In this document: positions 5,745 to 41,765 of the stretch, piece after piece
How the letters are laid out: each line of letters begins with the position of its first letter
Numbering within the stretch: position 1 is the stretch's first letter
Assembly: GCA_900299195.1 (NCBI GenBank)
Contig: OMIX01000089.1
Span: 2,892 to 66,891 of the forward strand
DNA length: 64,000 nucleotides
Direction of reading: 5' to 3'
Origin: Deltaproteobacteria bacterium
GTDB lineage: Bacteria; Bdellovibrionota; FAC87; UBA2466
Notes under the pieces: generated by a model
What the model saw: the letters and a program-made list of their open reading frames with translations, nothing else
What the model was told of the DNA's origin: nothing
Database searches by the model: none
Made by a program: the position numbers and the translations under genes

Positions 5745-5875
5745 AAGGTTTGAGAATAAATCAAAAATTACTCCTAAAGGAAAGGGCTAAATTGTGATCT
5801 AAACCGATAAAATCATTTGGGGAATCGCAACGTGCAACCTATCGTAATCTGTGAGAAACTAAGGTTATCGTCATC

Positions 5876-6811: not shown

Positions 6812-6922
6812 AACGCTATGCGTTACCCCGAAGATTCCCATCCATTCAACCGATTCCATCTTTCCAAGCTGAGAAAACCTCAGTAGAGTGCGCTCAAACC
6901 TTAACTTTTCGGAGGGCAACCC

Positions 6923-8244: not shown

Positions 8245-8251
8245 TCGTTCC

Positions 8252-21013: not shown

Positions 21014-22471
21014 TTAAAGGTTCAAATCCTCAACGCGGGACGAGAGACTGCGAAGAAAATCTTCTAACGCAGCTATTTCATGTTCACTCAAATTCAATGG
21101 CTTTAGCGTTTCCTCTCTAAAACCTACTCCAGAATGAGTCTCCATTTTGTTGTAGTGCTCCAGGACTTCCCTTAAAGTCTTCAATCTACCATCTCTCATG
21201 TATGGAGCAGTCTCTGCTACATTTCTTAGAGTCGGGGTTTTGAACGAACCAATCGCCTCTGGAGTTTCACTGTCCAAGAAATTGAGATCCCGACAGCTTT
21301 CGCTTTTTTGTCTTGAAGAATCTTTCAAAAATATTCCTTGGCAATTAAATCGGTCTTTTTTGACGGTCAACACACCTAAACTTCTCCCTAAATCAAACGG
21401 AGCCTGGCTTTGCGGAAGTCCAATATTGTGAAATTGATTGTCTTTAAAGTAGGGACCACTGTGACAAACATGGCAGGCCCCTTTTCCTAAAAAGATTTGA
21501 AACCCTAGAAACTCAGAGAAATTGAATTTCTCACTAAAATGAACTCTGGGGTCCGGATTTGAACTCTGCATCCACCTGCGGATAAATTGATCGAAAGCAG
21601 AATCTCTGGCAACAATGCCCTTTTCAAAGGCTTCAAAAGCCAGTCCAACGTTTGAGAAAACCCTATCTAACTCAAATCTTTGTTCACGATTCATTCTCCA
21701 GTAGTTAACTGATAATACATCTCCTTTTTGTGGAGATTGATTTCTTAATTTCTGGCGGAACTGTCGGATTTGCTGGGGTGAAAGTGTCAATTCATTCGAG
21801 CCGATTTCAGAGAGCAACTTTGGATTATCTGCTGAAACCATCGTATTTCTCACTACCCCATCAGAAAATTGAGGGCGTTCCCGCAAGGGACGCGCTTTAA
21901 AAGGGAGTGCCTTTTCCAATATTTTTGGAAAGGGGCCAAAAAGATTTTCGTAATCACTACGGGAGTTGTTTAAAATCCAGAAAGCTAATTCGGAACGAGT
22001 CAACCCCTGTTCACCCTCATCCTCAATGGGATTCAACGATTGTGCCGCCAACGAATCGGTGCGACCATCCCAGTAAAACCAAAAACTTGAAAAACTATTG
22101 ATGATAGTTGGGGTATTACGATCTCGTTGAGTTAAACCCTGTGCAGTAGTTTTACCATCCGTAAAGGATAGTTCTGGTTTATGACATGTCGCGCACGAAA
22201 TTTTCCCATTCTTGGATAAGCCAGTCTCGAAAAATAATTTTCTACCCCAATGAGCTAGTTCCCGATCTCTAGGGGTCAACTCGGGATCTTGGAAAACAAA
22301 AAACTGAGCCAACTTCCTAAGTTCGTTATCTGCCAATGGCTTGTTACCCATGGCGTCCCTTAACAATCTAGCCTGCTCTTTGGGAATCATGATGTACCGC
22401 CTGATGCCCACCATCCCAAGGACAATCAAAATCCATAAAAATAAAGTCAGCGAAAGTTTTTTAGAAATCAT
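21014..22471 (-). CDS. Di-haem cytochrome c peroxidase (CCP/MauG family) with N-terminal membrane anchor
   Basis: CATCHKPELSFTDG, RNTPTIIN, WDGR, second haem CHVCHSGPYFKDNQFHNIG, FKTPTLRNVAETAPYMRDG. Confidence 0.85.
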   Translation of the reverse strand: MISKKLSLTLFLWILIVLGMVGIRRYIMIPKEQARLLRDAMGNKPLADNELRKLAQFFVFQDPELTPRDRELAHWGRKLFFETGLSKNGKISCATCHKPELSFTDGKTTAQGLTQRDRNTPTIINSFSSFWFYWDGRTDSLAAQSLNPIEDEGEQGLTRSELAFWILNNSRSDYENLFGPFPKILEKALPFKARPLRERPQFSDGVVRNTMVSADNPKLLSEIGSNELTLSPQQIRQFRQKLRNQSPQKGDVLSVNYWRMNREQRFELDRVFSNVGLAFEAFEKGIVARDSAFDQFIRRWMQSSNPDPRVHFSEKFNFSEFLGFQIFLGKGACHVCHSGPYFKDNQFHNIGLPQSQAPFDLGRSLGVLTVKKDRFNCQGIFLKDSSRQKSESCRDLNFLDSETPEAIGSFKTPTLRNVAETAPYMRDGRLKTLREVLEHYNKMETHSGVGFREETLKPLNLSEHEIAALEDFLRSLSSRVEDLNL

Positions 22472-22887
22472 TTGTTATCAATGTTTAAAGGAGTTTCAAT
22501 TCGAGTGGTCCCTGTTTTATCCTTAATCAAAAACTGCAGTAACCAATTTCCCGGCATGTGAAACCTGACACCCTCCACCCGATACTCCAGCCTCGAAATT
22601 TTAATCACTTTGGCCTTAGTTACCATTCCATGGTTATGCTGGGGCATTCTGGCATCAAAGGTAAAATCGAGCACCTCCCCCGCCTGTTTCTCAATAGGAA
22701 GCAATGAAACTATCCATGTCGTATGCCGATTTAATTGAAATAGTTCAGCACCTTTTTCAGCTGCCTTGATAGATATTTGAAAGTTGGGAGTCCTCCATTC
22801 ATAAGCCAACCCCAGAGACGAAAAAAAACCAAAACTCATTATCCAAAGGCAACTGTAGCGGAAACAATTCAAAGATTTTTTCATCAT
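22468..22887 (-). CDS. Small periplasmic YtkA/FixH-like protein (putative metal-binding beta-sandwich)
   Basis: Signal peptide. MPQHNHGM and FHMPGNWLLQF blocks resemble the YtkA-like domain. ATGA overlap with the peroxidase gene. Confidence 0.45.
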   Translation of the reverse strand: MMKKSLNCFRYSCLWIMSFGFFSSLGLAYEWRTPNFQISIKAAEKGAELFQLNRHTTWIVSLLPIEKQAGEVLDFTFDARMPQHNHGMVTKAKVIKISRLEYRVEGVRFHMPGNWLLQFLIKDKTGTTRIETPLNIDNK

Positions 22888-22919
22888 AGTAATGATAATA
22901 TATCAGTCAGGATCTTAAG

Positions 22920-23978
22920 ATGACAATTCTACAAAAGAACAATTACCTGATTCGGTTTATTTGTTTTATATTCACATCGCTCTTTGCCTCATCAGCCCTT
23001 TCCAGTGATGGGCCTCAAAATAGTGGCCGTCTTCAATTGAAGGCCTCTCAGAACCACCAAGTCGAAGCTATCCTCCAAGTAGATCGGAAAGCGCTTCAAG
23101 AACTTTTTTCAACAGCTAATACAGAAAAAGCGGCTGAGTTTCTGAATTTCTTTTGGGTCAGTTCGCAAGAAGCTATCTGTCCAATGGCCTCCCCGTCTTC
23201 GTTGGCTAATGAAAATACTATCTCAACTACATTTATTCTGAATTGTCCTAAAGCTCCAGAACAACTTAAAATTCAACTCACCCAACTTGAATCACTGCCT
23301 AAGGGGTTCTCCCTAGGAGTAAGAACAAACTTTGAGCATTTTGTTTTGGATATTGATAATACCCAAAAAGAAACTTTTTTAAGTCCTTTTCAAATATTTT
23401 TTCGATCAGGTCTTTCGATATTTAGCTTTTTGGGAGCCCATTCCCAAGGATCACCGTTGGCTCTCTCACAACTTGGACGCCCGTTTCCGCTCTATTTTGG
23501 TGGGCTCAGTATTTTACCAGTGGGAATTTGGTGGCTTTTATTAGTGGCCGCGATTGGTGTATCAAATTTGAAATTTAAGCAAAAAGTATTAGCGGTAGGA
23601 ATGGCTATTTTTTTCTCGGGTTGGGTAGCTTACTTCATTTTGTTTTCTCAAATGTCACTCAGACTTCTTTCTGTTAACCAAATTAGTTTTAGTTACTTGG
23701 CCTGCATTTCCTATCTCACCTTTTTGAGTTTTCGAACCCCAACTGAGCAACAAAAGAAGGGGTGCCTGTTTTTGTTGATCGTACTTTCAATTTTTAGTGG
23801 ATTTGAATTTAGCCTGATGTTGAGATGGCTTGAAGGAAACCGGACAGTTCCTCTGGGAATTTGCATCTCGAGTTTTTTTGCTGGGCTCACACTCAACACC
23901 GCTATTCTCATGACTGCTTTTCTTATTTTAGGGTTTAGTCTTTATTCAGCGATAGCCTTGGCTTTTAAACTCATGTGA
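22920..23978 (+). CDS. Polytopic membrane protein with N-terminal periplasmic domain, unknown function
   Basis: Signal peptide, ~170 aa soluble region, then ~6 hydrophobic helices. Divergent from the YtkA-like/peroxidase pair. Confidence 0.5.
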   Translation: MTILQKNNYLIRFICFIFTSLFASSALSSDGPQNSGRLQLKASQNHQVEAILQVDRKALQELFSTANTEKAAEFLNFFWVSSQEAICPMASPSSLANENTISTTFILNCPKAPEQLKIQLTQLESLPKGFSLGVRTNFEHFVLDIDNTQKETFLSPFQIFFRSGLSIFSFLGAHSQGSPLALSQLGRPFPLYFGGLSILPVGIWWLLLVAAIGVSNLKFKQKVLAVGMAIFFSGWVAYFILFSQMSLRLLSVNQISFSYLACISYLTFLSFRTPTEQQKKGCLFLLIVLSIFSGFEFSLMLRWLEGNRTVPLGICISSFFAGLTLNTAILMTAFLILGFSLYSAIALAFKLM

Positions 23979-24057
23979 GCTCAGCCACTGTTTCTTTCTT
24001 TCGACCAGTAATAGGGATTAATACTTGGTTACTTTTGGTTTCAAAATAAAGAAAGTA

Positions 24058-25665
24058 TCAGGGGGTAGTGCTGCTCTTCTTAAAAATTAAGGAACGACTG
24101 CTGTTGTTTTTTATAAAATGATTCCCCTCAAAAGGTAATAAAGGTGATAATAAATTGAACGGACTAAGTCTTAACTCAATGGAATTGGCGGTCTCTCTGT
24201 TGCCAACGAGATAACGGTCTTTTTGATCTAAAAATAGAGCAATTCTTCCCGTATAAAAATCATAACTACCGCCTCGAAAGTCTTTGGCTGGCCAAAAGGA
24301 TTCGGTATGAATCATTCGTCCCACAAAATTCAATGGAGAAAATGGATTTTCCAAGTTGGAAGGTATTTTCTCAGCTGCGACTCCCACGTTAATTAACAAA
24401 TTATCAAAAGTATATGTACCGGAGAGAGACCCCACTGTAATTTTGTCGGTTGGAAGTTGAGGAAGTTTTGATTTCTGAAAGTAAAAAGTTCCCACCCTCC
24501 CAAAAAGTAGTGAATACCAAACCCCCTCGATAAAATCCTCATTAGCATTCGTAATTTCTAAGACCGCATCCATCTCGTTCACTTCAGTTAATGTGGGTTT
24601 GGCTAAGACAAAATGATTTGAATCTTCGGATAAAAAAACGGGGTCGTAGCGGTAAGTGAGAGCTTCTTGAGATTTAAAATCTCCAAAATAAAGTCTAAAC
24701 AAAGTTGAAAGCCCTATGGGTCCACCTTCGGTTTTTGGAGGCACTATAAAAAAATCTAAGTCAGCTGCTTGATACTCATTAAGCAACTCGTGATGAACAT
24801 ACCCTATGTAAGCGCCCTCCAACTTTCGAGGCTCGATAGTTCTTCTTTGGGAATGCTGGGGAAATTCAGAAGCGGTTGCGAAAAGTTGGGTATGAACCGA
24901 TGCATCCTCACTGGAAGTTTTTTTGTACTGACACGAACCACAGGTCATCCCAGATTCATTAATCAGACAATGCTGATTTTCATACCTACCAAAGAGATCT
25001 AGATTTTGGGTGTAGAAATTATAGGCTCCTGAGAAAAACAAGTTACGAACACAGTAATTGGTTTCCGTACATTGATTTGGGTTTTCAACTCCTATCTCGC
25101 CCACAATTTCATAGTCTGAAAAGGGATGGCCCGTTTTAGTCGTTTCTTGAATACTTCGATAAGTATAGAGCTGAAGCTTTTCTTTTTTGCCTGAGCAAAC
25201 TCCTTCATATTCTCCCCAAAGGGCATCTATCAGGGGATATTTCAGAGCCACTTTTCCATCTTTTCTTAAAATAAGTTCAGGGTGATCCGTAGTGAAGCTC
25301 GTTCGCAAAGTTCCTTTGAGCTCTTCTTCAGAAAACTTAGGAAAGGAAACACTAACCTCTTGATTGATTTGGTCAAAGACTAGCCAATCTCCATGAAGAT
25401 GAGCTGTATCAAAGTGAAAAGAAACATACTCCCGGCTTTTTAAATCACCAAAATAGAACTTGAGAAGCCCTAACCAACTGGAAGGCACTTCAGATTGCGG
25501 ATTAGCTACCAAATCCAAAGTGACATATTGGTCCCTCTGAATCGAATGATGACGAAGGACTCCAGTATATCGAAGTGAAGGAAGAGACGCTCCGGGAGAG
25601 GCAATAGTGAGCAACAATCCTAAAATAAATGATAGTTTGAATTGTTTTTGGAACGTCATTCTCAA
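24058..25665 (-). CDS. Exported protein of unknown function with an internal two-fold duplication
   Basis: Signal peptide. Blocks LLKFYFGDLKSREYVSFHFD and LFRLYFGDFKSQEALTYRYD lie ~250 aa apart within alignable modules. Confidence 0.55.
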   Translation of the reverse strand: MRMTFQKQFKLSFILGLLLTIASPGASLPSLRYTGVLRHHSIQRDQYVTLDLVANPQSEVPSSWLGLLKFYFGDLKSREYVSFHFDTAHLHGDWLVFDQINQEVSVSFPKFSEEELKGTLRTSFTTDHPELILRKDGKVALKYPLIDALWGEYEGVCSGKKEKLQLYTYRSIQETTKTGHPFSDYEIVGEIGVENPNQCTETNYCVRNLFFSGAYNFYTQNLDLFGRYENQHCLINESGMTCGSCQYKKTSSEDASVHTQLFATASEFPQHSQRRTIEPRKLEGAYIGYVHHELLNEYQAADLDFFIVPPKTEGGPIGLSTLFRLYFGDFKSQEALTYRYDPVFLSEDSNHFVLAKPTLTEVNEMDAVLEITNANEDFIEGVWYSLLFGRVGTFYFQKSKLPQLPTDKITVGSLSGTYTFDNLLINVGVAAEKIPSNLENPFSPLNFVGRMIHTESFWPAKDFRGGSYDFYTGRIALFLDQKDRYLVGNRETANSIELRLSPFNLLSPLLPFEGNHFIKNNSSRSLIFKKSSTTP

Positions 25666-25748
25666 GCTCCCAAAGGTCTCGGACAGAGTTCTAAAACATT
25701 TTGGGATTTAGATTCAACTTTAAAAAACTGAATAACAAGTTCTTAAAG

Positions 25749-26123
25749 CTAATGTGAGTTAGCTGCGCCTACACACTTGAGATCGGCTAATTCTCTAGGT
25801 CCTGCAAAAGTGGTTTCAGATAATTTTCCGTTCATATCCACTCCTGGAAGCTCCAGCTTAATCGTTGCAAAAAATCCTGCATCAGCCACACGTTGAGCTG
25901 TTCGACAATTTAAGAAGGCTTTTAACGTGTGGTCGGAGGGTTTGGGATATACAACGTTACATTTCATGTTTCCAAACTCGATATCCTCACCATTCACAGT
26001 AAGTTTAGCAGTTTGATGATTAGAGCTAACCTTGAGGTTCCATTTTCCACCACTGCAAAAAATAGGGGCTCCGAAAGAAAATTGAGATACGACCATGAAT
26101 CCCATTAACAAGTAAGTTTTCAT
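25749..26123 (-). CDS. Small exported protein, 4 Cys in the mature part, unknown function
   Basis: Signal peptide MKTYLLMGFMVVSQFSFGAP; no motif recognised. Confidence 0.45.
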   Translation of the reverse strand: MKTYLLMGFMVVSQFSFGAPIFCSGGKWNLKVSSNHQTAKLTVNGEDIEFGNMKCNVVYPKPSDHTLKAFLNCRTAQRVADAGFFATIKLELPGVDMNGKLSETTFAGPRELADLKCVGAANSH

Positions 26124-26400
26124 AAGTACTCCTTAAAAAAGTTACCCCTTTCTAACAGAAAATAACACATTGCGCAACCTGCGCTTTAAGGAATGCTGAC
26201 CTTCCCCCTTAATTAGTGTCAGTTTATGGCTTTAATTACAGCTTACAAGAGCACCACGGCTACTCTTCAACCTTGGTACTGTGAAGGAAATTTTTTGAGA
26301 GCCTCAGCGTAGGCAGGAGTAAGTCGTAAAAAATAATGTCCATTAATATTTTGCACTTCGCCCTACTCCAATGCTCAACATGACAAATTGTTTTTTGTAA

Positions 26401-27645
26401 TCAGTGCTGCGCTGAATGTTCTGTAGCGAGTCTAGCAAAAGATTTCAAACAACGTCGGCTGCCCAAATTAAAGACAAGACTTTCATCCCGAGTTGGCTCC
26501 CCACTGACAAATTCATTAAGATTCTCTTTGTCGAGTAAGCCGGTATTTTGATAAGCCTTGCCGAAGGTCTCGGGAAATGCTTTAGCCACGGCATGAACTC
26601 GTTTGACGGGATCTACTTTAAAAGCACTTTCTAAAAACCGTTCCTTTTCCTTATCCAACTCCGTAGTTGGCGGAAGGAGCTCCCTGAGTTTGGAATTGAC
26701 GAAAGATTCGAAGTCGGTTGCTGCCCGCTTGTTCGAAAGTAATAGCCGAGTGCCCCTTGAGAATAAATCATTAGAATCGACTGAAGAGTTTTTAAATTGA
26801 ATCTGGAAATACATTAACAATAGCGGTTTTCTAAAAAGTTCATGACTGATGGATTGCGCCTGTGAAAACAAATCCTCTGAAGGAACATTTGAGAGCCTTT
26901 GTTGGTAATGTAAACGCTCCGGTGCTGCATAGGACGGAGTAAACATGATGACCTTGGATGTTCCAGTCTCAGAGACACTATCAAGATCCCCAAGCCTTGC
27001 TTGGGCACCCATTATGTTATTACTTTTTAAAAGAAAGTAATTGGAAGGCTTAATGTCTCCATGAACAAGATTATTTGAGTGAAGCGCAAGAAGAGCCCCT
27101 TGACCAGCAAGAAATAAAAGATCAGAACGAATAATTCTTTGGTCTTCAGATAGCCTTTCTGGTTTTTTTGTCTCAAAGGTTCCTTTGGCAAGTGTGGAAC
27201 GGACGACGAATTCAGAACCTTCATATGCGTGCTGCTTCAACCACACTTCTTGAGTGGGTTCATAATTCAGAAAGAAACTCGGATTTGAATCCATTAACTT
27301 GCGATGTTGCGGGCTTCCGTAAAACTGTAAGCTATCTTTACCAGACAGTATTAAGTTGTTCTTTTGATCGCGTATCGGCCTGGCGAATTTCATCGCTTGG
27401 ATCTGTTTGGATCGAGCGCATCCCGAAAGGCACTCCACCTGGTAAACCTCGCCGGAACTACCCTTTCCTAGTATCTTAATAATTTTATACTCGCGATTAT
27501 CTTTATCCACCCAAACTTCCCCGGGTTGGACGGCGTGAATAGTTTTGTAGCACCCAACGAGAAAAAAGAATGTTAAAATAATCCCGAAGCCGAACTCTCG
27601 ACCTTTTTCTAGCGACCGTGCAGTCTTGTGGAGCTCAGGGCGCAT
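26401..27645 (-). CDS. Hanks-type Ser/Thr protein kinase with N-terminal lipoprotein-like signal/anchor
   Basis: G-loop GKGSSGEV, Lys in AMKF, catalytic loop HGDIKPSN, GDLD in place of DFG, YAAPE. N-terminal hydrophobic segment ends in the lipobox-like LVGC. Confidence 0.75.
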   Translation of the reverse strand: MRPELHKTARSLEKGREFGFGIILTFFFLVGCYKTIHAVQPGEVWVDKDNREYKIIKILGKGSSGEVYQVECLSGCARSKQIQAMKFARPIRDQKNNLILSGKDSLQFYGSPQHRKLMDSNPSFFLNYEPTQEVWLKQHAYEGSEFVVRSTLAKGTFETKKPERLSEDQRIIRSDLLFLAGQGALLALHSNNLVHGDIKPSNYFLLKSNNIMGAQARLGDLDSVSETGTSKVIMFTPSYAAPERLHYQQRLSNVPSEDLFSQAQSISHELFRKPLLLMYFQIQFKNSSVDSNDLFSRGTRLLLSNKRAATDFESFVNSKLRELLPPTTELDKEKERFLESAFKVDPVKRVHAVAKAFPETFGKAYQNTGLLDKENLNEFVSGEPTRDESLVFNLGSRRCLKSFARLATEHSAQH

Positions 27646-28411
27646 AATATCCCAGTACGGCTCTTGTCATATCAAAGTCACGTTCATTTTCGATAAATAA
27701 TATTTTGCGATATTCCGTAGCATCCTCAATCATATTATTCATGGGATCTGCGATAAGATTGCTTTTTGGAAGATAAACAAAGACATGGGAAAATGTTGGT
27801 TCGTTTTTTTCTTCTCGAGCATCTGCAACTCTTAGCTCTGCTTCGATCCCAAGTTGTTTAAGAATTTTATATAAAATGGTGGCCTTGTGGCGGCAAACTC
27901 CTCTATCTTTGACACGGGAATCAAGAAAACTCGAGGCAAAACGAACTGTGTTGGGATGGAGAACCAAAGTAGACCACACGATTTGACCACCTTTTCCATC
28001 ATCACTGGGATCTCCTCCGTAGAGTTTGCTAATAAACATCTTCAATATTTGTTTTAGGTTTTGACCTGAATACTTCAGTAACTCTCTTTCTTCCGCTGTT
28101 AAGTGAGAAACAATATTGTCCCAATCAAAGTAAATACCAAACCCGATGTGAGGTGCCTGACGAGTAAACGACTGGATTTGGTGTATCAAAATGGGAATAG
28201 CTCCAACAGCGGTTAAAGTACCGCCTAATCCGACAATTCTTGTTAAAGTTTGCCGACAGGAGTAGCGAGTAGCAGTTGACTGGATCGAATCCGAAAGGAA
28301 TACAGTTCTCTCGCCTTTTATTTTTTCGATATCTGAAATTTCCAAGCCTAGGGCGCCGATATTTGTTAGACAGATACAAATAAATACGATACTTCCACGG
28401 TATCTCAGCAT
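27635..28411 (-). CDS. Exported/membrane transglutaminase-like (Cys-His-Asp) protein
   Basis: GVCRHKATILYKILKQLGIEAELRV .. FSHVFVYLP .. IADP fits the transglutaminase-like core pattern. N-terminal signal plus one internal hydrophobic helix. 11-nt overlap with the kinase gene. Confidence 0.45.
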   Translation of the reverse strand: MLRYRGSIVFICICLTNIGALGLEISDIEKIKGERTVFLSDSIQSTATRYSCRQTLTRIVGLGGTLTAVGAIPILIHQIQSFTRQAPHIGFGIYFDWDNIVSHLTAEERELLKYSGQNLKQILKMFISKLYGGDPSDDGKGGQIVWSTLVLHPNTVRFASSFLDSRVKDRGVCRHKATILYKILKQLGIEAELRVADAREEKNEPTFSHVFVYLPKSNLIADPMNNMIEDATEYRKILFIENERDFDMTRAVLGYYAP

Positions 28412-28556
28412 ACCAAAGCCTTTCTTTGCCCCATTTCTTCTTGGTTAATGCAAATGGGATTCCATGAAAGAGAGATTAAAAAAGCTTTTTTTTCATAGTT
28501 TGAGTTGATCGGGGATAAGACAGAGATTTTTACCAAAGCATTAAAATCGAAAGAGT

Positions 28557-29270
28557 TTACTTTGATGGGACAGATCCGCTTTGTTGGATTGGAATAAGAT
28601 AGACATGGGTATAACCTAGTTCTTGAAGTTGCTTTTTAAACGAGCGGGAAGTTTCTGAGTCGCGAATAAGAATAATTTTATCCCGGTGGGTAATCATTCC
28701 ATGGGTAGCAGTACTGATAGCTTTTTTTAATTGGGTTCGACTCCAATTTTCACTCTTTGCCTTTTCTATCATTTCGCTATGGATCGATTGGGCTCGTTTA
28801 AAATCGGGAGGATTTGATACTTCAATTTCGATCGATTCTTTTAGGGTGATTAAGCTTGGAATTTCTTGGGAAATAGGAAATCCGCTCGCCTTCGAAATAG
28901 GGATGAGATGATTGTTGAGTACGTCCGAACGATCCAGAAGAACTAAGGGGCTAGGGGGGTTCTTAAAAAAGAACATGACATCTAAATCGCTTTTTTGTTC
29001 GGGAGAGTATCCGTAACTGAAATGGGTTCTGCTTCCAAAAAGCACCATCGCCTCAACATCACTAAAGTCTGGGTTGTTTTTGAAGATATCTATGAGCTCA
29101 TTGAGTTGGTTTTGGCTCATACCCATCGGGGTGGGAATGCCCTGATATCGCTTGGCTTCGAAGTTAAGAAGCTCACGGCAGTTAGTTTTGGGAATGGCAA
29201 GAGAGTAATGGCACACAAGCCCAAATGTCATAATAATAGACAGAGCTATATGTTTTTTTACAGTATTCAT
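28557..29270 (-). CDS. Secreted nucleotidyltransferase-fold (Pol-beta superfamily) protein
   Basis: LFGSRTHFSYGYSPEQKSDLDVMF = hG[GS]-x(n)-DhD motif. The start at 29270 gives signal peptide MNTVKKHIALSIIMTFGLVCHYSLA; the track start 29303 is an alternative. Confidence 0.45.
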   Translation of the reverse strand: MNTVKKHIALSIIMTFGLVCHYSLAIPKTNCRELLNFEAKRYQGIPTPMGMSQNQLNELIDIFKNNPDFSDVEAMVLFGSRTHFSYGYSPEQKSDLDVMFFFKNPPSPLVLLDRSDVLNNHLIPISKASGFPISQEIPSLITLKESIEIEVSNPPDFKRAQSIHSEMIEKAKSENWSRTQLKKAISTATHGMITHRDKIILIRDSETSRSFKKQLQELGYTHVYLIPIQQSGSVPSK

Positions 29271-29362
29271 CGTTTTCTGACTCAATTCCAAATGCCAAAA
29301 CATTTAGGCTGCAATAGAAAGGCCGATTTTTGAGGAAAGGATGTCTCCGGAATGTACCCGGA

Positions 29363-29439
29363 TGGTGGGCGCCACAGGACTCGAACCTGTGACCTCTGCC
29401 GTGTGAAGGCAGCGCTCTAACCAGCTGAGCTAGGCGCCC
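29363..29439 (-). tRNA. tRNA-Val (anticodon CAC), CCA encoded
   Basis: Hand-folded cloverleaf: acceptor GGGCGCC/GGCGCCC, D stem GCTC/GAGC, anticodon stem CTGCC/GGCAG with loop TTCACAC, T arm ACAGG-TTCGAGT-CCTGT. Confidence 0.9.
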
Positions 29440-29471: not shown

Positions 29472-29555
29472 TGGTGCGACGGGGGGGACTTGAACCCCCA
29501 CGCCTTTCAGCACATGCACCTCAAACATGCGTGTCTGCCATTCCACCACCGTCGC
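29472..29555 (-). tRNA. tRNA-Leu (anticodon GAG), class II with long variable arm, CCA encoded
   Basis: Acceptor GCGACGG/CCGTCGC, anticodon stem CATGT/GCATG with loop TTGAGGT, 13-nt variable arm, T arm GGGGG-TTCAAGT-CCCCC. Confidence 0.9.
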
Positions 29556-33133: not shown

Positions 33134-34117
33134 ATGGATTTTGAAATCTTAAAAGTAGAAAAGTCTTTATTTATCAAAGACTTAAAACCAAAAGAAACGG
33201 TAAGAACCTCGTTCTTGGTTAAATCTAAGGAAGTCTCTTATTCTAAAAACGGGAAACCTTACCTCTCACTTTTACTCAGTGACTCAACCGGGGACCTGGA
33301 GGGTCGTGTTTGGGACAATGCTGAAGATCTGAGTGCTACTTTTTCCGAAGGAAGTATCGTTGCTGTCGGAGGAAAATTAAATGTGTTTCAAAACCGTCAC
33401 CAATTGGTGATTGATCATTTAATTCCCCTGCCATCTGACAAAGCTAAAGTGGAAGATTACTTACCTCAAGGCCTAGAGGATACCGAGGCTCTTTTCGCAA
33501 AACTGATCCACTACTTTGAATCTCTAACTAACCCATGGGTGAAAGAACTAGGTCTTAAACTTCTTAACGATCCTGAAATAGCTCCACGGTATAAAGTTTG
33601 TCCAGCCGCAAAAACCATTCACCACGCTTTTATCGGGGGGCTCCTAACTCACTCGGTTCAACTCTGTGATTTGATCGAAGCTGTTCTTCCGCTTTATCGA
33701 GGGATTGACAGAAACCTCATGTTATTTGGAGCGGCATTTCACGATTTTGGAAAAATTTTCGAACTCAATTACCAAGGAAAATTGGGTTACACCGATGAAG
33801 GAAGACTGGTCGGCCACATCGCCATCGGTGTTGTACTCGTCGATAGAAAAATTCGAGAGATCGCTGATTTTCCTAAAGAACTTGAGTACCACTTAAAACA
33901 TCTTATCCTATCGCATCACGGAAAACTGGAACACGGCTCTCCAAAACGACCTCATACATTAGAATCAGAACTGTTGCACCAGTTGGATCATTTAGATTCC
34001 AGAATTAACAGTATTCAAACCTTCATGAACTCGGAAAAAAACAACTCACGTTGGTCGGGCTACCACAAAACCTTCGACCAATATTATTTCAAGCCCATTC
34101 AAATGCTGTTAGAATAA
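33134..34117 (+). CDS. OB-fold + HD-domain 3'-5' exoribonuclease, YhaM-like
   Basis: N-terminal OB fold (GDLEGRVWDN), HD domain HHAFIGGLLTHS .. FHDFGK .. LILSHHG. Confidence 0.65.
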   Translation: MDFEILKVEKSLFIKDLKPKETVRTSFLVKSKEVSYSKNGKPYLSLLLSDSTGDLEGRVWDNAEDLSATFSEGSIVAVGGKLNVFQNRHQLVIDHLIPLPSDKAKVEDYLPQGLEDTEALFAKLIHYFESLTNPWVKELGLKLLNDPEIAPRYKVCPAAKTIHHAFIGGLLTHSVQLCDLIEAVLPLYRGIDRNLMLFGAAFHDFGKIFELNYQGKLGYTDEGRLVGHIAIGVVLVDRKIREIADFPKELEYHLKHLILSHHGKLEHGSPKRPHTLESELLHQLDHLDSRINSIQTFMNSEKNNSRWSGYHKTFDQYYFKPIQMLLE

Positions 34118-34122
34118 ACGGC

Positions 34123-34887
34123 ATGAATGAACTTGAATCTATTTTAAATACCGCTACTCAAATTGCAGAACAGGCCGCTGAAATTGCACAATCCTATTTC
34201 AGACAAGCGATTCTTATCGAGATGAAAGAAAACATGACACCGGTCACAGTCGCTGACAAGAAGACCGAAGAATTCATTCGAAAAGAGTTAGCCTCTGCAT
34301 TTCCCGGATTTGGTATTTGCGGAGAAGAATTTGGAGAAGAAGGAAAAGAGCAGGAATTGGTTTGGACCGTCGATCCTATCGATGGAACCAAAAGTTTTAT
34401 CAAAGGAATACCCTTATTCGGGACTCTCTTGGGCCTTTTGCAGCACGGGGAACCCATCATGGGTGTCATGGTGCTTCCGGCCTTAAAAGAAACCTACACC
34501 GCCGCTAAAGACCTTGGAACTTATTGCAACGGACATCAATTACACGTCTCCCAAAAAACCAGCCTGGAATCTTCTTTTGTTTCGATTGGAGACATAGATT
34601 GTTTTGAGGCCTCAAGACAAACTAAGGGATTACATCGATTGCTAGACAAAGCGGAATTTGTTCGAGGTTACACCGATTGTTTTGGGCACTCTTGTGTGAT
34701 GCGCGGAGGTATCGATGCCATGATCGATCCCGTAGTGTCCTTGTGGGACATTGCTCCCCTAGCCTGCTTAATTAAAGAAGCGGGTGGAGAGTATTTCAGC
34801 CTTGGTGGAAGTGAAACTATTCACGAAACGAGTTTCATCACCTGTGGCCCAGGGCTCAAAAAAGAAATACTTTCTATTCTCGGTTAA
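34123..34887 (+). CDS. Inositol monophosphatase family protein (IMPase/HisN-like)
   Basis: ICGEEFG and WTVDPIDGT metal-binding motifs, GYTDC. The ATG at 34123 avoids a 67-nt overlap with the upstream gene. Confidence 0.8.
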   Translation: MNELESILNTATQIAEQAAEIAQSYFRQAILIEMKENMTPVTVADKKTEEFIRKELASAFPGFGICGEEFGEEGKEQELVWTVDPIDGTKSFIKGIPLFGTLLGLLQHGEPIMGVMVLPALKETYTAAKDLGTYCNGHQLHVSQKTSLESSFVSIGDIDCFEASRQTKGLHRLLDKAEFVRGYTDCFGHSCVMRGGIDAMIDPVVSLWDIAPLACLIKEAGGEYFSLGGSETIHETSFITCGPGLKKEILSILG

Positions 34888-36308
34888 TTCACCAACTCAT
34901 CGGGAGTATAAACTTTAGAAATCGTTAATCGTTTTTCTTGTGGAATATCTTTTTGAAACTCTTCCAAATCCTTTGCAACCACATCTTTATCCGCCACCAA
35001 AGCGATCAACCAACTTTGAGTATTATGTTTTTCTTTTAACACTGATTTTAACTTCTTATTATTGATTCCACCGATTGTCTCAGAAAACTCCTCAGGACTT
35101 AAAATGGGAATGTTGTAGAGATAGCTCGTCAGTTTTTGAGAAACTCTTTTCTCTGCAGTTTCAAATTCAAAGGGATAGGAGTTAATCAAGCTATCTTTAG
35201 CCAAATCCAACTCATCTCCAGAAAGACCACTCTCTAAGTAGGACTTCCACATCTCTAGTGTTTTAAAAATAGTTTTAGATGTGTACTCAACACTAGGAGT
35301 TGAGGAAATACTAAACAGCCCTTGCTGATTCGATACCCCGCCCAACGATGCATAGGAACTGCCAATGGCATAGGTCCATCCCAATTCGCCTCGAATCGTT
35401 TTAAACAAACGAGAAACTAAAGGCTCACCCCCAAAGGAAAAATTTCCAGTTTTTAAGGTGTATCGATCGGGATCTTGAGCGGTAATTCCACCTTGTGCAA
35501 AAAAGAGAGAGCCCGTAGAGGTTTTTGGCTTGTGGATTACTATCAAAGTGGGCTTTTCAGGAATCTGTAACTTAACTGCCCGCTTAGGCGGCTTGGCCCC
35601 ATCGGGAAACTGTCGCCAAATCCGAGCAAAATCGGAAATCATTTCAGATTCAGGAAAAGGTGAAGCTGCTGCAAAAATAATTTTGGGTCGATCAAAATAA
35701 TCATTATATTTTCTTAGAACATCAGAAAGGGAAATTTTCTCAATAGTAGACTGACTTCCTATGACTGGACGCTCTAGAGGAGTGCCTTTAAAAATTTCTC
35801 TCCTCGCCGCGAGTCCGCCCAGTCGATTATTTGAATTTTTCACATGAAGAATGTCATTCAGGATTTCCCTTTTCAACTCTTGGAAATCTTTTTCAGTGAA
35901 AGCGGGATGAAGCAATGCCTCCTCCAAAAGAGCGATAAATTTTTGAGTATTTTCTTTAATCACTCCACCAGAAAATTGAATGGTATCTTGGGTAACGACC
36001 GCCGATAAAGCCCCACCCATTCTTTCCAATTCACTCTGAAACTTTTGTCGACTTCTTTTTTTAGTTCCACGAAGAACCATTTCGGCAACGATATTACTCA
36101 AACCACTTTTTTCTACCGGATCATCTACGCTTCCCGTCATGACGATCACACTCAAAGTGGTGGTCAGCGCTGAGGGATTTTTCTCGTAAAAAACTTTAGG
36201 TGATACAGGAACCCCATTTTCGGTTGCCGGTTCAGCCCGAAATGAGGTTTTGGTTTTTGAAAAAACTGACGATGCAATCAATAAAAAACAAAAGATGATG
36301 CGTAACAT
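34884..36308 (-). CDS. M16 (pitrilysin) family peptidase homolog lacking the HxxEH motif (probable non-catalytic partner)
   Basis: Signal peptide and M16 two-domain layout. GLSNIVAEMVLRGT occupies the HxxEH position. Confidence 0.7.
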   Translation of the reverse strand: MLRIIFCFLLIASSVFSKTKTSFRAEPATENGVPVSPKVFYEKNPSALTTTLSVIVMTGSVDDPVEKSGLSNIVAEMVLRGTKKRSRQKFQSELERMGGALSAVVTQDTIQFSGGVIKENTQKFIALLEEALLHPAFTEKDFQELKREILNDILHVKNSNNRLGGLAARREIFKGTPLERPVIGSQSTIEKISLSDVLRKYNDYFDRPKIIFAAASPFPESEMISDFARIWRQFPDGAKPPKRAVKLQIPEKPTLIVIHKPKTSTGSLFFAQGGITAQDPDRYTLKTGNFSFGGEPLVSRLFKTIRGELGWTYAIGSSYASLGGVSNQQGLFSISSTPSVEYTSKTIFKTLEMWKSYLESGLSGDELDLAKDSLINSYPFEFETAEKRVSQKLTSYLYNIPILSPEEFSETIGGINNKKLKSVLKEKHNTQSWLIALVADKDVVAKDLEEFQKDIPQEKRLTISKVYTPDELVN

Positions 36309-36313
36309 GGATG

Positions 36314-37687
36314 TTACCCTTTCGATGAAGTTTTAGATTGGGGTCGAACAATAACAACAGAACGAGATTCTTTTTTCAAAAAGTTTTTGGCAGCCTCTTT
36401 TAAATCCTGAGGTTTAAGTTTTTTAAACTCCTCAATAATTTCAAATCCCCTCAGGTAATTGCCACTCACCATTAAATAATCTCCCAACATATTTGCCATC
36501 GAAGAGTTGTCTTCAATCATACCGTAGAGAGACAAAAGTTCTTGGTTTAAAGCTCTTTCAAATTCTTCCTTTTTAATAGTTTGGCTTTTTAACAGGCTGA
36601 CTTCTCGATCAATGATCTCAATCGCCTCTTCTGCTCGATGTTTTTCCGCCAACGAAACAGAAAACTCGAGATAGTCCGGAACATTGCTCACCCCACAACT
36701 TGCTGAAACTGCAATTCCGGTATCTACCAATGTCTTTCTTAATCTTGACTCCATTCCTGTCGAAAGATGCGTACTTAGAAGCGATAATGGAACAATCGAA
36801 GGTGAGTTTACAGGTGGAATTCGATATCCTACCAAAAGAATGTCAGAAGTCGCTTGAGGGTGTTTTTTCTCAACTCGCCTTTCTTTCTTTTGGGAAGGTT
36901 CTTCCGGCATTTGATATCTCGGTATTTCCTGAGATTTCATATCGCCATAATACTTAACGATGAGAGGTAGTAATTCACTCTCCTCAGTATCGCCTACAAC
37001 AATAACGGTTGCATTATTGGGAGAGTAGAACGTTTTATAAAAATATTGGGCTTCTTCCAAAGTAAATCCTTTGATTTCTTCTTCAGTTCCTAAAACCGTG
37101 TACCTAAATGGAGCGACTTCAAAGACGGTGCGATTCAATTCATCCCAGGCTAATCGCCCCGGATTGTCCAAAGCCCGCCTCAACTCTCCAACGACTGCCC
37201 CCTTTTCTTTATCTAAAAGGGCGGCATCTAATTTAAGATTAGCCATTCGATCGGACTCAAGTTCGATTAATTTTTTTAATTGGTTTGAGGGAATACTCTC
37301 ATAGTAGTTGGTTCGGTAAAAATAGGTGGTTGCATTCTGTTTATCGCTTCCAATTCTGGAAGTGATTTCATCAAATTTACCGTCGGGATATTTGTCGGTT
37401 CCTCTAAACATCATATGTTCGAAAAGATGAGCCAATCCTGTCTTTTTAAGTTTTTGATCCATTTTTTCATCAAGAGATCCGATATCAAACCAAGTTTGGA
37501 AGGTCAGGACTTTAGCTTCATGCCTGGGGATCAATAAAACTTTCAACCCATTTGGAAGTTTGTACTCAGAAAGGGTCTCTCCATTGAAAAGTTTTTTATC
37601 GGACACTTTCTCAAAATCAGCTCCGAATACGCCTGAGAAAGTTAGAGCGGTTGCCAGAGTTAAAATATGCCACGATTTTTTATTCAT
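36314..37687 (-). CDS. M16 family zinc peptidase (catalytic subunit)
   Basis: Signal peptide; inverted zinc motif GLAHLFEHMMFRGT (HxxEH). Confidence 0.85.
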   Translation of the reverse strand: MNKKSWHILTLATALTFSGVFGADFEKVSDKKLFNGETLSEYKLPNGLKVLLIPRHEAKVLTFQTWFDIGSLDEKMDQKLKKTGLAHLFEHMMFRGTDKYPDGKFDEITSRIGSDKQNATTYFYRTNYYESIPSNQLKKLIELESDRMANLKLDAALLDKEKGAVVGELRRALDNPGRLAWDELNRTVFEVAPFRYTVLGTEEEIKGFTLEEAQYFYKTFYSPNNATVIVVGDTEESELLPLIVKYYGDMKSQEIPRYQMPEEPSQKKERRVEKKHPQATSDILLVGYRIPPVNSPSIVPLSLLSTHLSTGMESRLRKTLVDTGIAVSASCGVSNVPDYLEFSVSLAEKHRAEEAIEIIDREVSLLKSQTIKKEEFERALNQELLSLYGMIEDNSSMANMLGDYLMVSGNYLRGFEIIEEFKKLKPQDLKEAAKNFLKKESRSVVIVRPQSKTSSKG

Positions 37688-37701
37688 AAGATGTCAGATC
37701 C

Positions 37702-39144
37702 TTACTGTTTTGGAGTTTCAAGTTGATATAAAGACTCATCTTCAGAAAACGCAGGAGCCTTAGGCTCAGAGGCTCCTCCCTCTTTTGAAGAAGGCTCAGT
37801 AGAATTCATTTGATTGCTGTCGGATTCAGGCAATTGTTTTTTAACAGGTTCAGATATTTCAGATTCTTTTGGAATCTCAGTATGGGGATCTGATGGAGTT
37901 AATTCTAAAGAAGAATCAATTTTGGGATCGATAGGCGCCTTGGGCACCAATTTAATCTCAACCTCAGGGCTTCCCCCTTCAATCTTTTTCCCTTTGATTT
38001 TAGATTTGAAAGAGCCATTAGGAGCTCCTAACCCCAGAGCCAAAGTTAAAGCATATCTTCGACTGGGTAAACGACCCGGCCCACTTGACAACTCTTCTTG
38101 ATAAGTCGCGAAATCTAATTTGGCATAGGTCAGGTTAACACCTAATCCCACTGAAACATAACCTTGATGAATACCCGTTCTTACAGTCAACGCTCCTACG
38201 GGAACCTCAATCCCAAGATTTAGATGCTTTAAAATTTTTCCAGACCGAGCCCCCAAATGTGGATCGCTCTCTCCACCTAATTGAAACTCGGCAAGATCAG
38301 CCATCACATGATAGTGATCTACTAAATCACCTCCAGAGAAAACAGAATGCCAACCAATTGAAAAAGTACGGGTAAGACCAGGAGGTTGACCGGTGCTTTT
38401 GCTTCCCATAGAAAATGAGCTTGCAAGCAAATTACTCACTACAAATGAAATTCGATTAGCTTGTCCAAAGTCTAAATAGGGAATGTCGTACATGACTCCT
38501 AAATCAAAATCGATCCCAAATCCAGTTCCGCCAAGATCTTTGGGATTCAAATTCACTTTGTCGCCTTGAACCAAATCAGCCAAAGTTAAATTGACTCTGC
38601 CTCCGCTGCGAAGAATCCCTTTTGCCGTTAATCCGATGTGGGTATATTCATTACCCACGGTTCTTCCATAGCTAACCAGCAGTCCGGAATCGATAATTCC
38701 AGTGAAATCGACACTCGAATCGAGTTCTTTCCCAGAGAGCAAATAATCGGCTTTAACATCTCCTAGCAAAACTCCCACAGCTAAATGCTTCATTAAGAAA
38801 TAAGGTAGAACAGAGCCCCCTAAGTAAAGAGGATCTCCTTGATATTGAGCTAAAGCATCAATCGAATCGGCTAAGGATTTTGAAGACAGAGTCTTTTTAG
38901 TTTCAAAGGCAGCAAAAGTACGATTACCGACTTGACTACCGAAATTCACCATCGATTGTGTTTTACCTTGATAAAGGCTAACGCCGGCGGGATTGTAGAA
39001 CAGTGCGTACTCATCATCCGACCGCCCGTAGAACGCCCCCCCCATTCCCAAGGCGCGAATGCTTCGACTGATACCGTAGAACTCTCTCATCGCGAATGTT
39101 GGGACTACAAAAGATAGACATATGAGAAGGGTCAGTCTTTTCAT
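37702..39144 (-). CDS. Outer-membrane beta-barrel protein (paralog of 13651-14973) with a long disordered C-terminal tail
   Basis: Signal peptide. RSIRALGMGGAFYGRSDDEYALFYNPAGVS signature. TAATG 1-nt overlap with the upstream lipoprotein gene. Confidence 0.65.
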   Translation of the reverse strand: MKRLTLLICLSFVVPTFAMREFYGISRSIRALGMGGAFYGRSDDEYALFYNPAGVSLYQGKTQSMVNFGSQVGNRTFAAFETKKTLSSKSLADSIDALAQYQGDPLYLGGSVLPYFLMKHLAVGVLLGDVKADYLLSGKELDSSVDFTGIIDSGLLVSYGRTVGNEYTHIGLTAKGILRSGGRVNLTLADLVQGDKVNLNPKDLGGTGFGIDFDLGVMYDIPYLDFGQANRISFVVSNLLASSFSMGSKSTGQPPGLTRTFSIGWHSVFSGGDLVDHYHVMADLAEFQLGGESDPHLGARSGKILKHLNLGIEVPVGALTVRTGIHQGYVSVGLGVNLTYAKLDFATYQEELSSGPGRLPSRRYALTLALGLGAPNGSFKSKIKGKKIEGGSPEVEIKLVPKAPIDPKIDSSLELTPSDPHTEIPKESEISEPVKKQLPESDSNQMNSTEPSSKEGGASEPKAPAFSEDESLYQLETPKQ

Positions 39145-39905
39145 TAGTTGAATGTTTCCTTAAGCGCCCGTCTCACCGTATTCGTATTAGAATCGGTGAT
39201 TCCTGGGATGGATAATAATTTACTTAAGGCCCCTGCCAACTCGGTAAAACCAGCTGCGTTAAGGTCAGCGCTGGAGATCGCTTGGATGTCGGATGCACAA
39301 GCATCAACATCGGGTTTACACATTCCTGGACTTCCCGAAACCAATTCTCCATTGGAATCGCCTCCAATATCTACTGCACTCAAAACTCGATTGGCTTGAG
39401 CGTTAGGTGTTGTACAGTCATTGATATCTACATGAGTCGCTTGAAACATATCAGTCCTAGCCATTCGAATCGCACAATGGGAGAACAGAGCGATCGTTTT
39501 TAAAAGAACTGCCTCTTCTTTGTTACTTAAACTATTAAAATTCACACAATGGGTTTTTGCTAAATCTAAATCGGCCGACTTTCTCGAAGTCCACGGAACA
39601 AATTTTTGGGCGTAATTGGGTAACATTTTACTAGAGTTTTGATTCAAGCTATTAACTAAAACCGTTAAGGTGACTCCCCCTCGACTCAAATAGGTCTGAC
39701 AGAGTTTTTGTTGTTTGAGTGTGTTATCTTCCAATTTTTCATACTGCTCCAGGGCACAATCATAATTGGAATCCGATAAGCATTTTTGCGCCTCTTCAAG
39801 TTTATCCAGATCCGAACCGGTGGTATTAAAGGGCGTGTAAAGGTTGCAAGAAATAAGAGAGAGAATGATTAGCAATAAAATAAAGAAATGTAGGAATGGC
39901 TTCAT
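39144..39905 (-). CDS. Cys-rich lipoprotein, unknown function
   Basis: Lipobox LISC after a hydrophobic signal; about 10 Cys in the mature part. Confidence 0.55.
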   Translation of the reverse strand: MKPFLHFFILLLIILSLISCNLYTPFNTTGSDLDKLEEAQKCLSDSNYDCALEQYEKLEDNTLKQQKLCQTYLSRGGVTLTVLVNSLNQNSSKMLPNYAQKFVPWTSRKSADLDLAKTHCVNFNSLSNKEEAVLLKTIALFSHCAIRMARTDMFQATHVDINDCTTPNAQANRVLSAVDIGGDSNGELVSGSPGMCKPDVDACASDIQAISSADLNAAGFTELAGALSKLLSIPGITDSNTNTVRRALKETFN

Positions 39906-40004
39906 AGCTTTTGTGCGGTATAAGAAAATTTACCACAAAAGCTTATCGAAAAGTATTCAAAGACTTAGAGTTTTATGATGTGGCGAGTTACTAAACGAGT
40001 TTTG

Positions 40005-40580
40005 TCAACAACCCAATCCAAACTGCACAGCCCCCGTACAAAAAGCCGGCCGAACCGGTTGGAGTGAGGGTTGTGTCAAAACATCTCTCTGAACTAATTG
40101 CCAACCCGCTTGTTGAAGTTTTTGAGCACGATCTGAGGTAATTTCAAATCCTCTCGCAACTAAATTAGAGCCGACTCGACTCACAATTCCGCCTAACTGT
40201 GAAATAAACCAAGGTCGGGTTTCAGGATAATTAGCATACTGACCATTCGACATAGTCGAATACATCATAATGAAATTAATTAAATTGTCAGAACACTGCC
40301 CTCCCAAAGAAGGGATTACGGGAAGTCCTCCCCCCATTCCAGCTTGAGGGTTGCTCATCATCATCATGACTGGAGCTAAGCTATTAGCGCCCGATTTTCC
40401 GCATTCTTCTTTTGTTTGTTGGGCTAAAGTAAACATAGTTTGAAGTTGGGCCTGATCGGTAGGGTTATTCAATTTAAGCCCAGGCGGCTGCGGTGGTGGA
40501 GCCGAACTGTCTCCGCATCCAATCATGAAAAGCAGTAAACTTTGAGAAAAGAGAATCAAAATGTGTTTCATAACTAACAC
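40005..40580 (-). CDS. Lipoprotein, unknown function
   Basis: Lipobox MIGC; Met/Gly/Gln-rich mature sequence. Confidence 0.5.
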   Translation of the reverse strand: MLVMKHILILFSQSLLLFMIGCGDSSAPPPQPPGLKLNNPTDQAQLQTMFTLAQQTKEECGKSGANSLAPVMMMMSNPQAGMGGGLPVIPSLGGQCSDNLINFIMMYSTMSNGQYANYPETRPWFISQLGGIVSRVGSNLVARGFEITSDRAQKLQQAGWQLVQRDVLTQPSLQPVRPAFCTGAVQFGLGC

Positions 40581-40820
40581 TCCAAGCTAAACGGCTAATG
40601 GGACTCTTAATAAGTAAGGCTGCAACCCTGAGGCCACAAATAGACTACGAATAAACAGCTTACAAAGCTCTGAAGTCATTCACTTTTGTTAAGTTTTTAT
40701 GAGGCTGACTAGAACCTAGACAAAGAATATTTAATCGACAACGGCCCTAGAACTTAAAAAAAACATTGTTAAATCAGTATTTTAGGGTGGCTAGCTTTTT
40801 AGCAACCCAAACGACTAGCT

Positions 40821-41765
40821 TCAGTTCGCTTTAAGCTCTCTAGATAATCTTTCTCGAGTATATTCGACAAAGGACTTAATCCCCTCTTGGATAGAAATTC
40901 TAGGCTCCCAGCCAACTCTTTGCGTTTCTGAGATATCGGCCAAAGTTCTAAAAGCCTCTCCCGGCAACTCCGGCTTAAAAATTGGTTCAAGACCCGATTG
41001 GATTTCATTCTCAATCATTTGGAAAATTTCAAGAATGGAATAGTCTTTACCCGATCCCAAATTATAAATTCCCCCTTGAATGTTTTTCTCTCGTACAAGT
41101 TGGAGATGAAATCGATTGATATCATCGACATGAATAAAATCTCTTCTCTTTTCACCCGTTCCGTAAATGAAAGGTCTTTGTCCTTGTAAAAGCTTGATCG
41201 TAAAAGCACTCATGACCGGAGGAATCACTCTCCGCCAATCTTGGGCTGGACCATAAACATTAAAATAACGAACCGTAGAGATATTTAATCCGTAATAGTT
41301 TTTAAAGCCCTCTGCAATTAAAGCCCCGCTTCTTTTACTGCAAGCATAGATCGACATAGGCTTAACCCGATCAGTTTTAGAGGGAAAAGAGTCAATGCCT
41401 TCGTATTCAGCTGAAGTGTCCGAGTAGATCACATGAGGCACTCGATATTCGACACAAGCCTGCAAAACATTCGCTGTTCCCATCACGTTAATTCGAGCGG
41501 TGTCGACTGGATTTTTAGCACAGTCATCCAAACAATTTCTGGCAGCTAAATGAAAAACGGCCGAAGCCCCCTCTACATACCGGCCAAAATCGGAATCGCA
41601 AACGTCGATTTTCTTAAAATCGACTCCCTCTGGTAAATTTTCTAATGTTCCCGCCAAAAGATTATCGATAGCCACTACGAAATAACCTTCCTGCAATAAC
41701 ATCTTACAAAGATTACTTCCGATAAACCCGGCAGCCCCGGTCACGACTATTTTTTCACGCACCAT
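40821..41765 (-). CDS. NAD-dependent nucleotide-sugar epimerase/dehydratase (extended SDR)
   Basis: VTGAAGFIGSNL Rossmann motif, catalytic YACSK (YxxxK). Confidence 0.85.
   Translation of the reverse strand: MVREKIVVTGAAGFIGSNLCKMLLQEGYFVVAIDNLLAGTLENLPEGVDFKKIDVCDSDFGRYVEGASAVFHLAARNCLDDCAKNPVDTARINVMGTANVLQACVEYRVPHVIYSDTSAEYEGIDSFPSKTDRVKPMSIYACSKRSGALIAEGFKNYYGLNISTVRYFNVYGPAQDWRRVIPPVMSAFTIKLLQGQRPFIYGTGEKRRDFIHVDDINRFHLQLVREKNIQGGIYNLGSGKDYSILEIFQMIENEIQSGLEPIFKPELPGEAFRTLADISETQRVGWEPRISIQEGIKSFVEYTRERLSRELKAN

Follow-up and report, generated by a model that had tools for sequence, protein, structure and literature searches.

The described systems closest to the locus analysed here are bacterial Hanks-type Ser/Thr protein kinases, MNT minimal nucleotidyltransferases (NTases) and TgpA-type transglutaminase-like proteins. 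Bacterial Hanks kinases include PknB/Stk1-type receptors, which usually combine a cytoplasmic N-terminal kinase, a transmembrane (TM) segment and an external sensor, and effectors such as LegK1 and YpkA; to our knowledge, known effector kinases carry signals for type III or type IV secretion systems (T3SS or T4SS), not Sec signals. The MNT enzymes comprise HI0073 and the MntA antitoxins of HEPN-MNT type VII toxin-antitoxin (TA) systems, which AMPylate proteins, and are compared here together with the two-domain antibiotic NTases ANT(4'), AAD(9) and LinB. The transglutaminase (TGase)-like fold requires no nucleoside triphosphate (NTP), and the TGase domain of TgpA is periplasmic. We analysed a stretch of 64,000 nt (contig OMIX01000089.1 of GCA_900299195.1, positions 2,892-66,891), hereafter called the window, whose positions are used as coordinates throughout. 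Directly 3' of a tRNA pair, it encodes an MNT-type NTase, a transglutaminase-like (TG-like) protein and a Hanks-type kinase in consecutive genes (Table 1). Each of these proteins is a divergent member of a known superfamily; as one system, the finding does not hold. The three are probably independent, fast-evolving, lineage-restricted accessory genes for envelope-targeted enzymes, located in a plastic region after the tRNA pair, and not one cassette.

The genes were separated by comparison with a closely related strain. In contig JBJSYF010000361.1 of the metagenome-assembled genome (MAG) GCA_046089625.1 ('Deltaproteobacteria bacterium'; L008), whose DNA is 94-97% identical to the window, the NTase gene is followed after ~140 nt by the 124-aa orphan (adjacent ACKOA8_05140 and ACKOA8_05145), and about 29 nt stand in place of the window segment that contains the TG-like and kinase genes and no others. 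The pair is carried by other contigs at 99.5% identity, so that its presence or absence is a strain-level polymorphism. A search for repeats flanking the 2.3-kb indel gave only short chance-level matches. The TG-like and kinase genes are the only unit in the block, because they are translationally coupled, with an 11-nt overlap between the TG-like stop and the kinase start, and are present or absent jointly.

More distant relatives showed the same separation. A word-indexed search of 5.8 billion proteins yielded 2-3 homologues per protein, and all three proteins are near-orphans; the kinase had a single homologue, with 38% identity (L007). A JGI metagenome contig (L004, 1-13488) is syntenic with window 791-13615 at 62-93% protein identity, and its NTase homologue (33% identity) lies between an aldo-keto reductase gene and an inverted acetyl-CoA hydrolase gene, ~16 kb from the position of the NTase in the window. 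Both L004 and L005 carry the NTase without a TG-like or kinase gene, TG-family genes occurred in six unrelated contexts (L003, L006, L090, L091, L092 and the P0022 contig), none of which had a kinase or NTase gene next to them, and the sole kinase homologue has neither a TG-family nor an NTase gene beside it. Co-occurrence of the components, as expected of a conserved multi-gene cassette, was thus not found in the contigs examined. The original prediction had joined the three genes in one cassette and had itself named their independent occurrence in other genomes as evidence to the contrary; independent occurrence is what we observed, both in the strain that keeps the NTase without the pair and in the separate homologues.

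On the cassette model of that prediction, the kinase, a TG-like deamidase or crosslinker and a nucleotidylyltransferase are effectors exported by Sec and delivered together into prey or host cells, which hold NTPs; we consider this unlikely. Both NTP-dependent enzymes do have export-type N-termini, the lineage is related to the Bdellovibrionota, whose well-known predators secrete enzymes into their prey, and the genes are fast-evolving and strain-variable, as effectors often are. In addition, every gene in the run 21014-29303 encodes a signal-like N-terminus. Against joint delivery stands the lack of co-inheritance, as a ~95% identical strain retains the NTase alone of the three and NTase and TG-family homologues stand alone elsewhere. 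Domain scans of the neighbourhood found no secretion-system or effector-marker domains, and the predatory lifestyle of the host, most likely an uncultured, deep-branching Bdellovibrionota-related bacterium, is only putative. N-terminal hydrophobic segments were also found on 25 of the 57 window open reading frames (ORFs; about 44%), a base rate at which three signal-bearing genes in a row are unremarkable and expected by chance several times per window. Furthermore, the TG-like fold is ordinary in the periplasm: because it needs no NTP and its closest solved sequence match is TgpA, with its periplasmic TGase domain, an external location of the TG-like protein is not anomalous. The three had been described as exported enzymes with cytoplasm-type folds; the kinase and NTase folds were confirmed and the TG-like fold was supported by transitive homology, whereas the anomaly does not extend to the TGase-like fold. 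The main result is cautionary: neither adjacency to a tRNA nor the sharing of signal peptides is enough to make genes a system.

In the NTase, the motif LFGS91-x14-D106LD108VMF (G90 also) is invariant in three homologues and matches the pattern hG[GS]-x(9-13)-Dh[DE]h, with a spacer of 14, one residue over the classical range. The protein scored 20.5 bits against the Pfam model Polbeta (PF18765; cutoff 26.9, 5e-4) and 15.5 bits against the NCBIfam model MntA_antitoxin (NF047752; cutoff 60, 0.012), and its PDB sequence match was 2rff (0.15). The AlphaFold2 (AF2) model was of moderate quality (pLDDT 63.5), and the nearest structural relatives were MNT antitoxins (MntA). Several lines of evidence, independent but each weak, agree on an MNT-type Pol-beta fold. 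The N-terminus carries a signal peptide with a cleavage-type site between SLA and IP, followed by a conserved Cys42 and, further on, a helical C-terminal part. Homologues at 63 and 33% identity likewise have a signal peptide and then the conserved Cys, an AxA-type cleavage site is present in all three homologues, and there is no second hydrophobic segment. Predicted export of the NTase is accordingly well supported, the strongest case of the three. Compared with the MNT minimal NTases listed above, the protein differs in its cleavable signal peptide, in an extra C-terminal part of ~120 aa (helical/beta) and in lacking a HEPN partner: no HEPN gene lies beside it either in the window, where the neighbours are tRNA-Val and the TG-like gene, or in L004, where they are the aldo-keto reductase and acetyl-CoA hydrolase genes.

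The kinase exceeded the cutoff of the Pfam model Pkinase (PF00069; 49.8 bits against 31.7, E=4e-13, aa 53-352), and its motifs are complete (GKGSSGEV, AMK85, HGD197IKPSN202, GD220LD, APE243 and DPVKR), with the non-RD form 'HGD'. All are kept in the alignment with the L007 homologue. The best PDB sequence matches were ordinary eukaryotic kinases, with Nek7 at the top (5e-6). When the kinase alignment was used to scan metagenomes, the only matches were high-GC eukaryote-type kinases at 28% identity, and no further relatives emerged. The core is as complete as that of the bacterial Hanks kinases, subdomain XI Arg included, whereas scores against PknB, LegK1 and similar NCBIfam models were far below cutoff. 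The layout also departs from the usual bacterial one, as the signal, lipobox or anchor precedes the domain, and no PASTA or other sensor domains were found in the protein.

The only hydrophobic stretch of the kinase spans aa 18-32, before the kinase domain, with none after it. It ends in a PS00013-type lipobox (IILTFFFLVGC, Cys32), one of four matches obtained by regular expression among 56 window ORFs under the rule of a Cys at position 15-35 and K/R within the first 7 residues. The start was placed at M1, as the next ATG, GTG or TTG is the GTG of codon 46. A cytoplasmic kinase initiated at that GTG was considered and rejected; such an isoform is unlikely because the GE[VI]W motif immediately before it is shared with the only homologue. 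Export of the kinase is plausible. In the L007 homologue, a hydrophobic stretch is present in frame without a canonical start: its Logan contig (L007 415-640) contains no ATG, GTG or TTG upstream of the glycine-rich loop, and an ATT (Ile) codon before the hydrophobic stretch would yield MKTLSLWFF.... The missing start points to a non-canonical start codon or an assembly error in the Logan contig. No Sec-exported Hanks kinase in Bdellovibrio-like organisms was found in literature searches; a Sec-type leader is unusual both for a Hanks kinase and for an MNT-like NTase, and those searches yielded no description of one.

On its own, the TG-like protein remained below the threshold of the Pfam model Transglut_core (PF01841; 13.1 bits against a cutoff of 23, E=0.12), with the motifs GVCRH, SHVFVY and IADP present. 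An exhaustive profile search gave a family of 87 representatives, 65 of them at E<=1e-10 and mostly 200-270 aa in length. In an alignment of 68 sequences (mean column identity 10%), H209 is invariant and C173, D222, P223, G171 and K176 are conserved in at least 90%. Transglut_core was matched by 39 of the 68 members (E<0.01) and Transglut_core3 by 10, and the relatives P0102, P0064, P0096 and P0097 exceeded the Transglut_core cutoff with 25-31 bits. When compared with PDB sequences, the 68-member profile matched TgpA (6g49, P. aeruginosa; E=0.018) with the Cys-His-Asp triad aligned, while a profile of three close homologues gave noise only. The AF2 model (pLDDT 34) was unusable for fold comparison. 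The predicted fold is sound by transitive homology. The TG-like protein and TgpA share the order and spacing of the triad, and the helix motif G-x-C-R-H-K-A and the motif H-x-W/F-V...D-P are aligned; both proteins are membrane-associated, whereas the TG-like protein is far smaller (about 250 aa) and has its own conserved N-terminal module. We infer that the TG-like protein acts as a hydrolase or transamidase with a Cys-His-Asp centre, is associated with the membrane and belongs to a family not yet described.

Among 20 family members looked up, two had an organism name, both being Bdellovibrionota MAGs; members are named 'hypothetical protein', and the precomputed Pfam domains read '-'. No description of such a family in Bdellovibrio-like organisms was found in literature searches. 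The TG-like family with its H1-[KR]C[KR]-H2 leader appears to be unannotated, and the analysis delimits it at about 87 clusters with an unusual leader architecture. In the 68-protein alignment (window protein aa 49-96), this leader consists of a Sec-type signal peptide, a variable linker and [KR]-C-[KR], and continues with a G/A-rich hydrophobic helix (H2) ending in Pro, P-x-x-YHD and HIGxGIYLD. One family member showed a weak match to PF14381 (EDR1/CTR1/ARMC3 peptidase-like, E=0.005). In plants, TGase-like domains of the PF14381 type are fused to Raf-like kinases, and the match is a possible, very weak precedent for an association of TGase-like proteins with kinases; no fusion to a kinase was found among the long members of the family.

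The topology of the proteins bears on a further reading, in which the hydrophobic N-termini are inner-membrane anchors, the catalytic domains are cytoplasmic and the proteins are ordinary tethered signalling or modification enzymes, with a kinase and a TGase-like protein that have their targets in the cytoplasm. The TG-like protein has two hydrophobic segments, the signal-peptide-like H1 (aa ~5-26) and H2 (aa ~59-76), as does most of its family, and simple counting returns its core to the cytoplasm. The NTPs on which the kinase and the NTase depend are found in the cytoplasm, and the stretch in the kinase homologue is 19 aa, the length of a TM segment, without a lipobox. On the other hand, the charge bias of the kinase, as read from the sequence, favours an N-in/C-out orientation under the positive-inside rule in both homologues, so that the N-terminus would stay inside while the domain would face outward. 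In three homologues, the leader of the NTase has the form of a classical cleavable signal peptide, with no second hydrophobic segment behind it, and across the TG family K/R residues number 3.7 before H2 vs 1.35 after it (n=49, p=1e-7). The K/R enrichment before H2 conflicts with the topology that a cleaved signal peptide implies. Cytoplasmic anchoring of the catalytic domains is improbable. Export of the TG-like protein is ambiguous on this evidence. The original prediction had called all three enzymes exported, for which candidate export or anchor signals were recovered on each of them, whereas the label is uncertain for the TG-like protein because of its two hydrophobic segments.

A toxin-antitoxin or anti-phage module, pairing an MNT-like NTase in the style of HEPN-MNT type VII systems with a defence-type kinase, is extremely improbable: the structural kinship of the NTase with MNT antitoxins, matches of the kinase to the PADLOC mad6 and PD-T4-6 kinase models, and TA-like genes in nearby variable DNA of other strains or relatives (an HTH_3 pair in L008; AbiE and HicAB in L091) point in its direction, but there is no HEPN partner beside the NTase in the window or in L004, the conserved signal peptide is incompatible with a cytoplasmic antitoxin, the PADLOC kinase matches span the generic catalytic loop only (aa 184-249), the TG-like protein, the NTase and the orphans have no PADLOC match, and the NCBIfam scores lie far below their cutoffs.

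Several points weigh against our interpretation of the three as independent genes for envelope-targeted enzymes. The context comparison covers few, mostly short contigs, and the genes may be associated more loosely, through a shared regulon or genome-wide co-occurrence. The 11-nt coupling suggests that the TG-like protein and the kinase work together. The signal calls are hydropathy and pattern heuristics, not of SignalP/LipoP grade, and the one homologue of the kinase lacks the lipobox. For the TG-like protein, the predicted topology is contradictory, as two segments imply a cytoplasmic core and the K/R bias implies an external one. The fold assignment of the NTase rests on several scores, each of which is weak.

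If the genes do encode independent envelope-targeted enzymes, the NTase would be exported by Sec, processed by signal peptidase I (SPase-I) and act as an MNT-like minimal NTase with an extra helical C-terminal part, transferring a nucleoside monophosphate (NMP), most likely AMP as in MntA antitoxins, to a protein or small molecule outside the cytoplasm of the producer. The TG-like and kinase genes are coupled in translation as a two-gene operon that near-identical strains either have or lack; the TG-like protein may serve as a membrane-associated Cys hydrolase or transamidase resembling TgpA, and the kinase, held by a lipoprotein signal or signal-anchor in N-in/C-out orientation, would need an external source of NTPs. 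Actual export, the substrates and any role toward other cells are inferred. For the kinase and the NTase individually, delivery into prey is an attractive hypothesis. A fuller scenario, in which both are released into prey and phosphorylate or AMPylate prey proteins with the NTPs of the prey, and in which the kinase has the TG-like protein as a membrane-active partner, is improbable; if true, effectors for eukaryote-style post-translational modification would have a Sec-dependent route in the predation of bacteria on bacteria. Should the kinase and the NTase act outside the cytoplasm of the producer, they would represent a rare bacterial case of NTP-dependent protein modification by Sec-exported enzymes and offer a hint as to how uncultured Bdellovibrio relatives manipulate other cells.

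The layout of the region is summarised in Table 1. Its description as three consecutive minus-strand genes, each with a signal or anchor N-terminus, was borne out by the ORFs and hydrophobic segments found in all of them, and both the 11-nt overlap and a distance of 92 nt to tRNA-Val were reproduced from the coordinates. The latter holds for the NTase ATG at 29270, and from the first ATG, at 29303, the gap is 59 nt. Upstream of the tRNA pair lie secG, tpiA, pgk and gap. The block has the same GC content (0.39-0.42) as the window on average, and a promoter and terminator scan gave no signal above the shuffled expectation.

Table 1. Features of the tRNA-adjacent region, in window coordinates.
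Feature	Position	Strand	Length	Remark
Two orphan genes	24058..26123	-	124 aa and 535 aa	Signal-peptide-like N-termini
Strain-variable segment	26217..28538		2.3 kb	Only TG-like and kinase genes; basis: blastn and junction sequences
Hanks-type Ser/Thr protein kinase gene	26401..27645	-	414 aa	
Transglutaminase-like (TG-like) gene	27635..28411	-	258 aa	Papain-fold type, Cys173-His209-Asp222
MNT-type nucleotidyltransferase (NTase) gene	28557..29303	-	248 aa	Second ATG at 29270
tRNA-Val(CAC)	29363-29439	-		ARAGORN
tRNA-Leu(GAG)	29472-29555	-		ARAGORN

The two downstream orphans, which had also been listed as exported, indeed both have N-terminal hydrophobic segments of signal-like character. Neither had a Pfam, NCBIfam or PADLOC match, both are kept in L008 and hence present in both strain types, and a unit with the three enzymes is not demonstrable. 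They are the first members of a signal-bearing run that goes on downstream of the enzymes (21014-26123) and includes a 352-aa multi-TM protein (+ strand), a 139-aa YtkA-like protein (weak match) and a di-haem cytochrome c peroxidase (CCP_MauG, 3e-34). Downstream of tRNA-Leu in L010, the nearest GTDB relative, no gene of this run was found.

On the basis of TpiA and Pgk, the nearest relatives are 'Bdellovibrionales bacterium' and 'Deltaproteobacteria bacterium' MAGs. In L010 ('Bdellovibrionales bacterium'; Pgk 88%, TpiA 78% identity), the order gap-pgk-tpiA-secG-tRNA-Leu is kept and synteny ends exactly at tRNA-Leu, with none of the genes of 21014-29303 within 9.5 kb past it. The placement of the genes in tRNA-adjacent accessory DNA is consistent with this plasticity, as L010 synteny stops at tRNA-Leu and strains differ in content. 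The region thus resembles tRNA-associated islands in its position directly 3' of tRNAs, its strain-variable content and the synteny break at the tRNA, whereas it differs from them in lacking an integrase, a tRNA 3'-end repeat and a GC anomaly: no integrase was present among the called window genes, no tRNA-derived repeat of >10 nt was found in the window, and an att-like search with the 3' end gave short chance-level matches only.

Other variable DNA was observed around these loci. Upstream of the NTase in L008 (1026-1851), tRNA-Val is replaced by a 99-aa ORF and an Xre-type HTH_3 gene (104 aa), with which a 69-aa ORF overlaps in the manner of a toxin-antitoxin pair; no tRNA was found within 2 kb in this upstream region. 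The 69-aa ORF, judged RelE/HigB-like by eye, had no Pfam support and this assignment was discarded. In L091 (5443-9777; GCA_041391385.1, a Bdellovibrionota MAG), a TG-family gene lies ~480 nt downstream of tRNA-Pro. The toxin-antitoxin pairs AbiEi/AbiEii and HicA/HicB come next, which makes this another instance of the TG family in tRNA-adjacent accessory DNA, in addition to the window. Within the syntenic part of L004, protein identities to the window were 88% for RecQ, 93% for ABC-F, 77% for AhpC, about 70% for TAL/SIS/GFO, 62% for the aldo-keto reductase and 75% for the acetyl-CoA hydrolase, and the 589-aa signal-bearing ORF of the window at 9227-10996 (weak FemAB_like match) is absent from that contig. 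A segment of the window at 34108-40845 (~6.7 kb), with about 400 nt in its place and no counterpart in the otherwise syntenic L010, represents another variable segment; it holds genes for two M16-type peptidases, an inositol-phosphatase-like gene and, at 39144-39905 and 40005-40580, genes for lipoproteins whose lipoboxes are clear.

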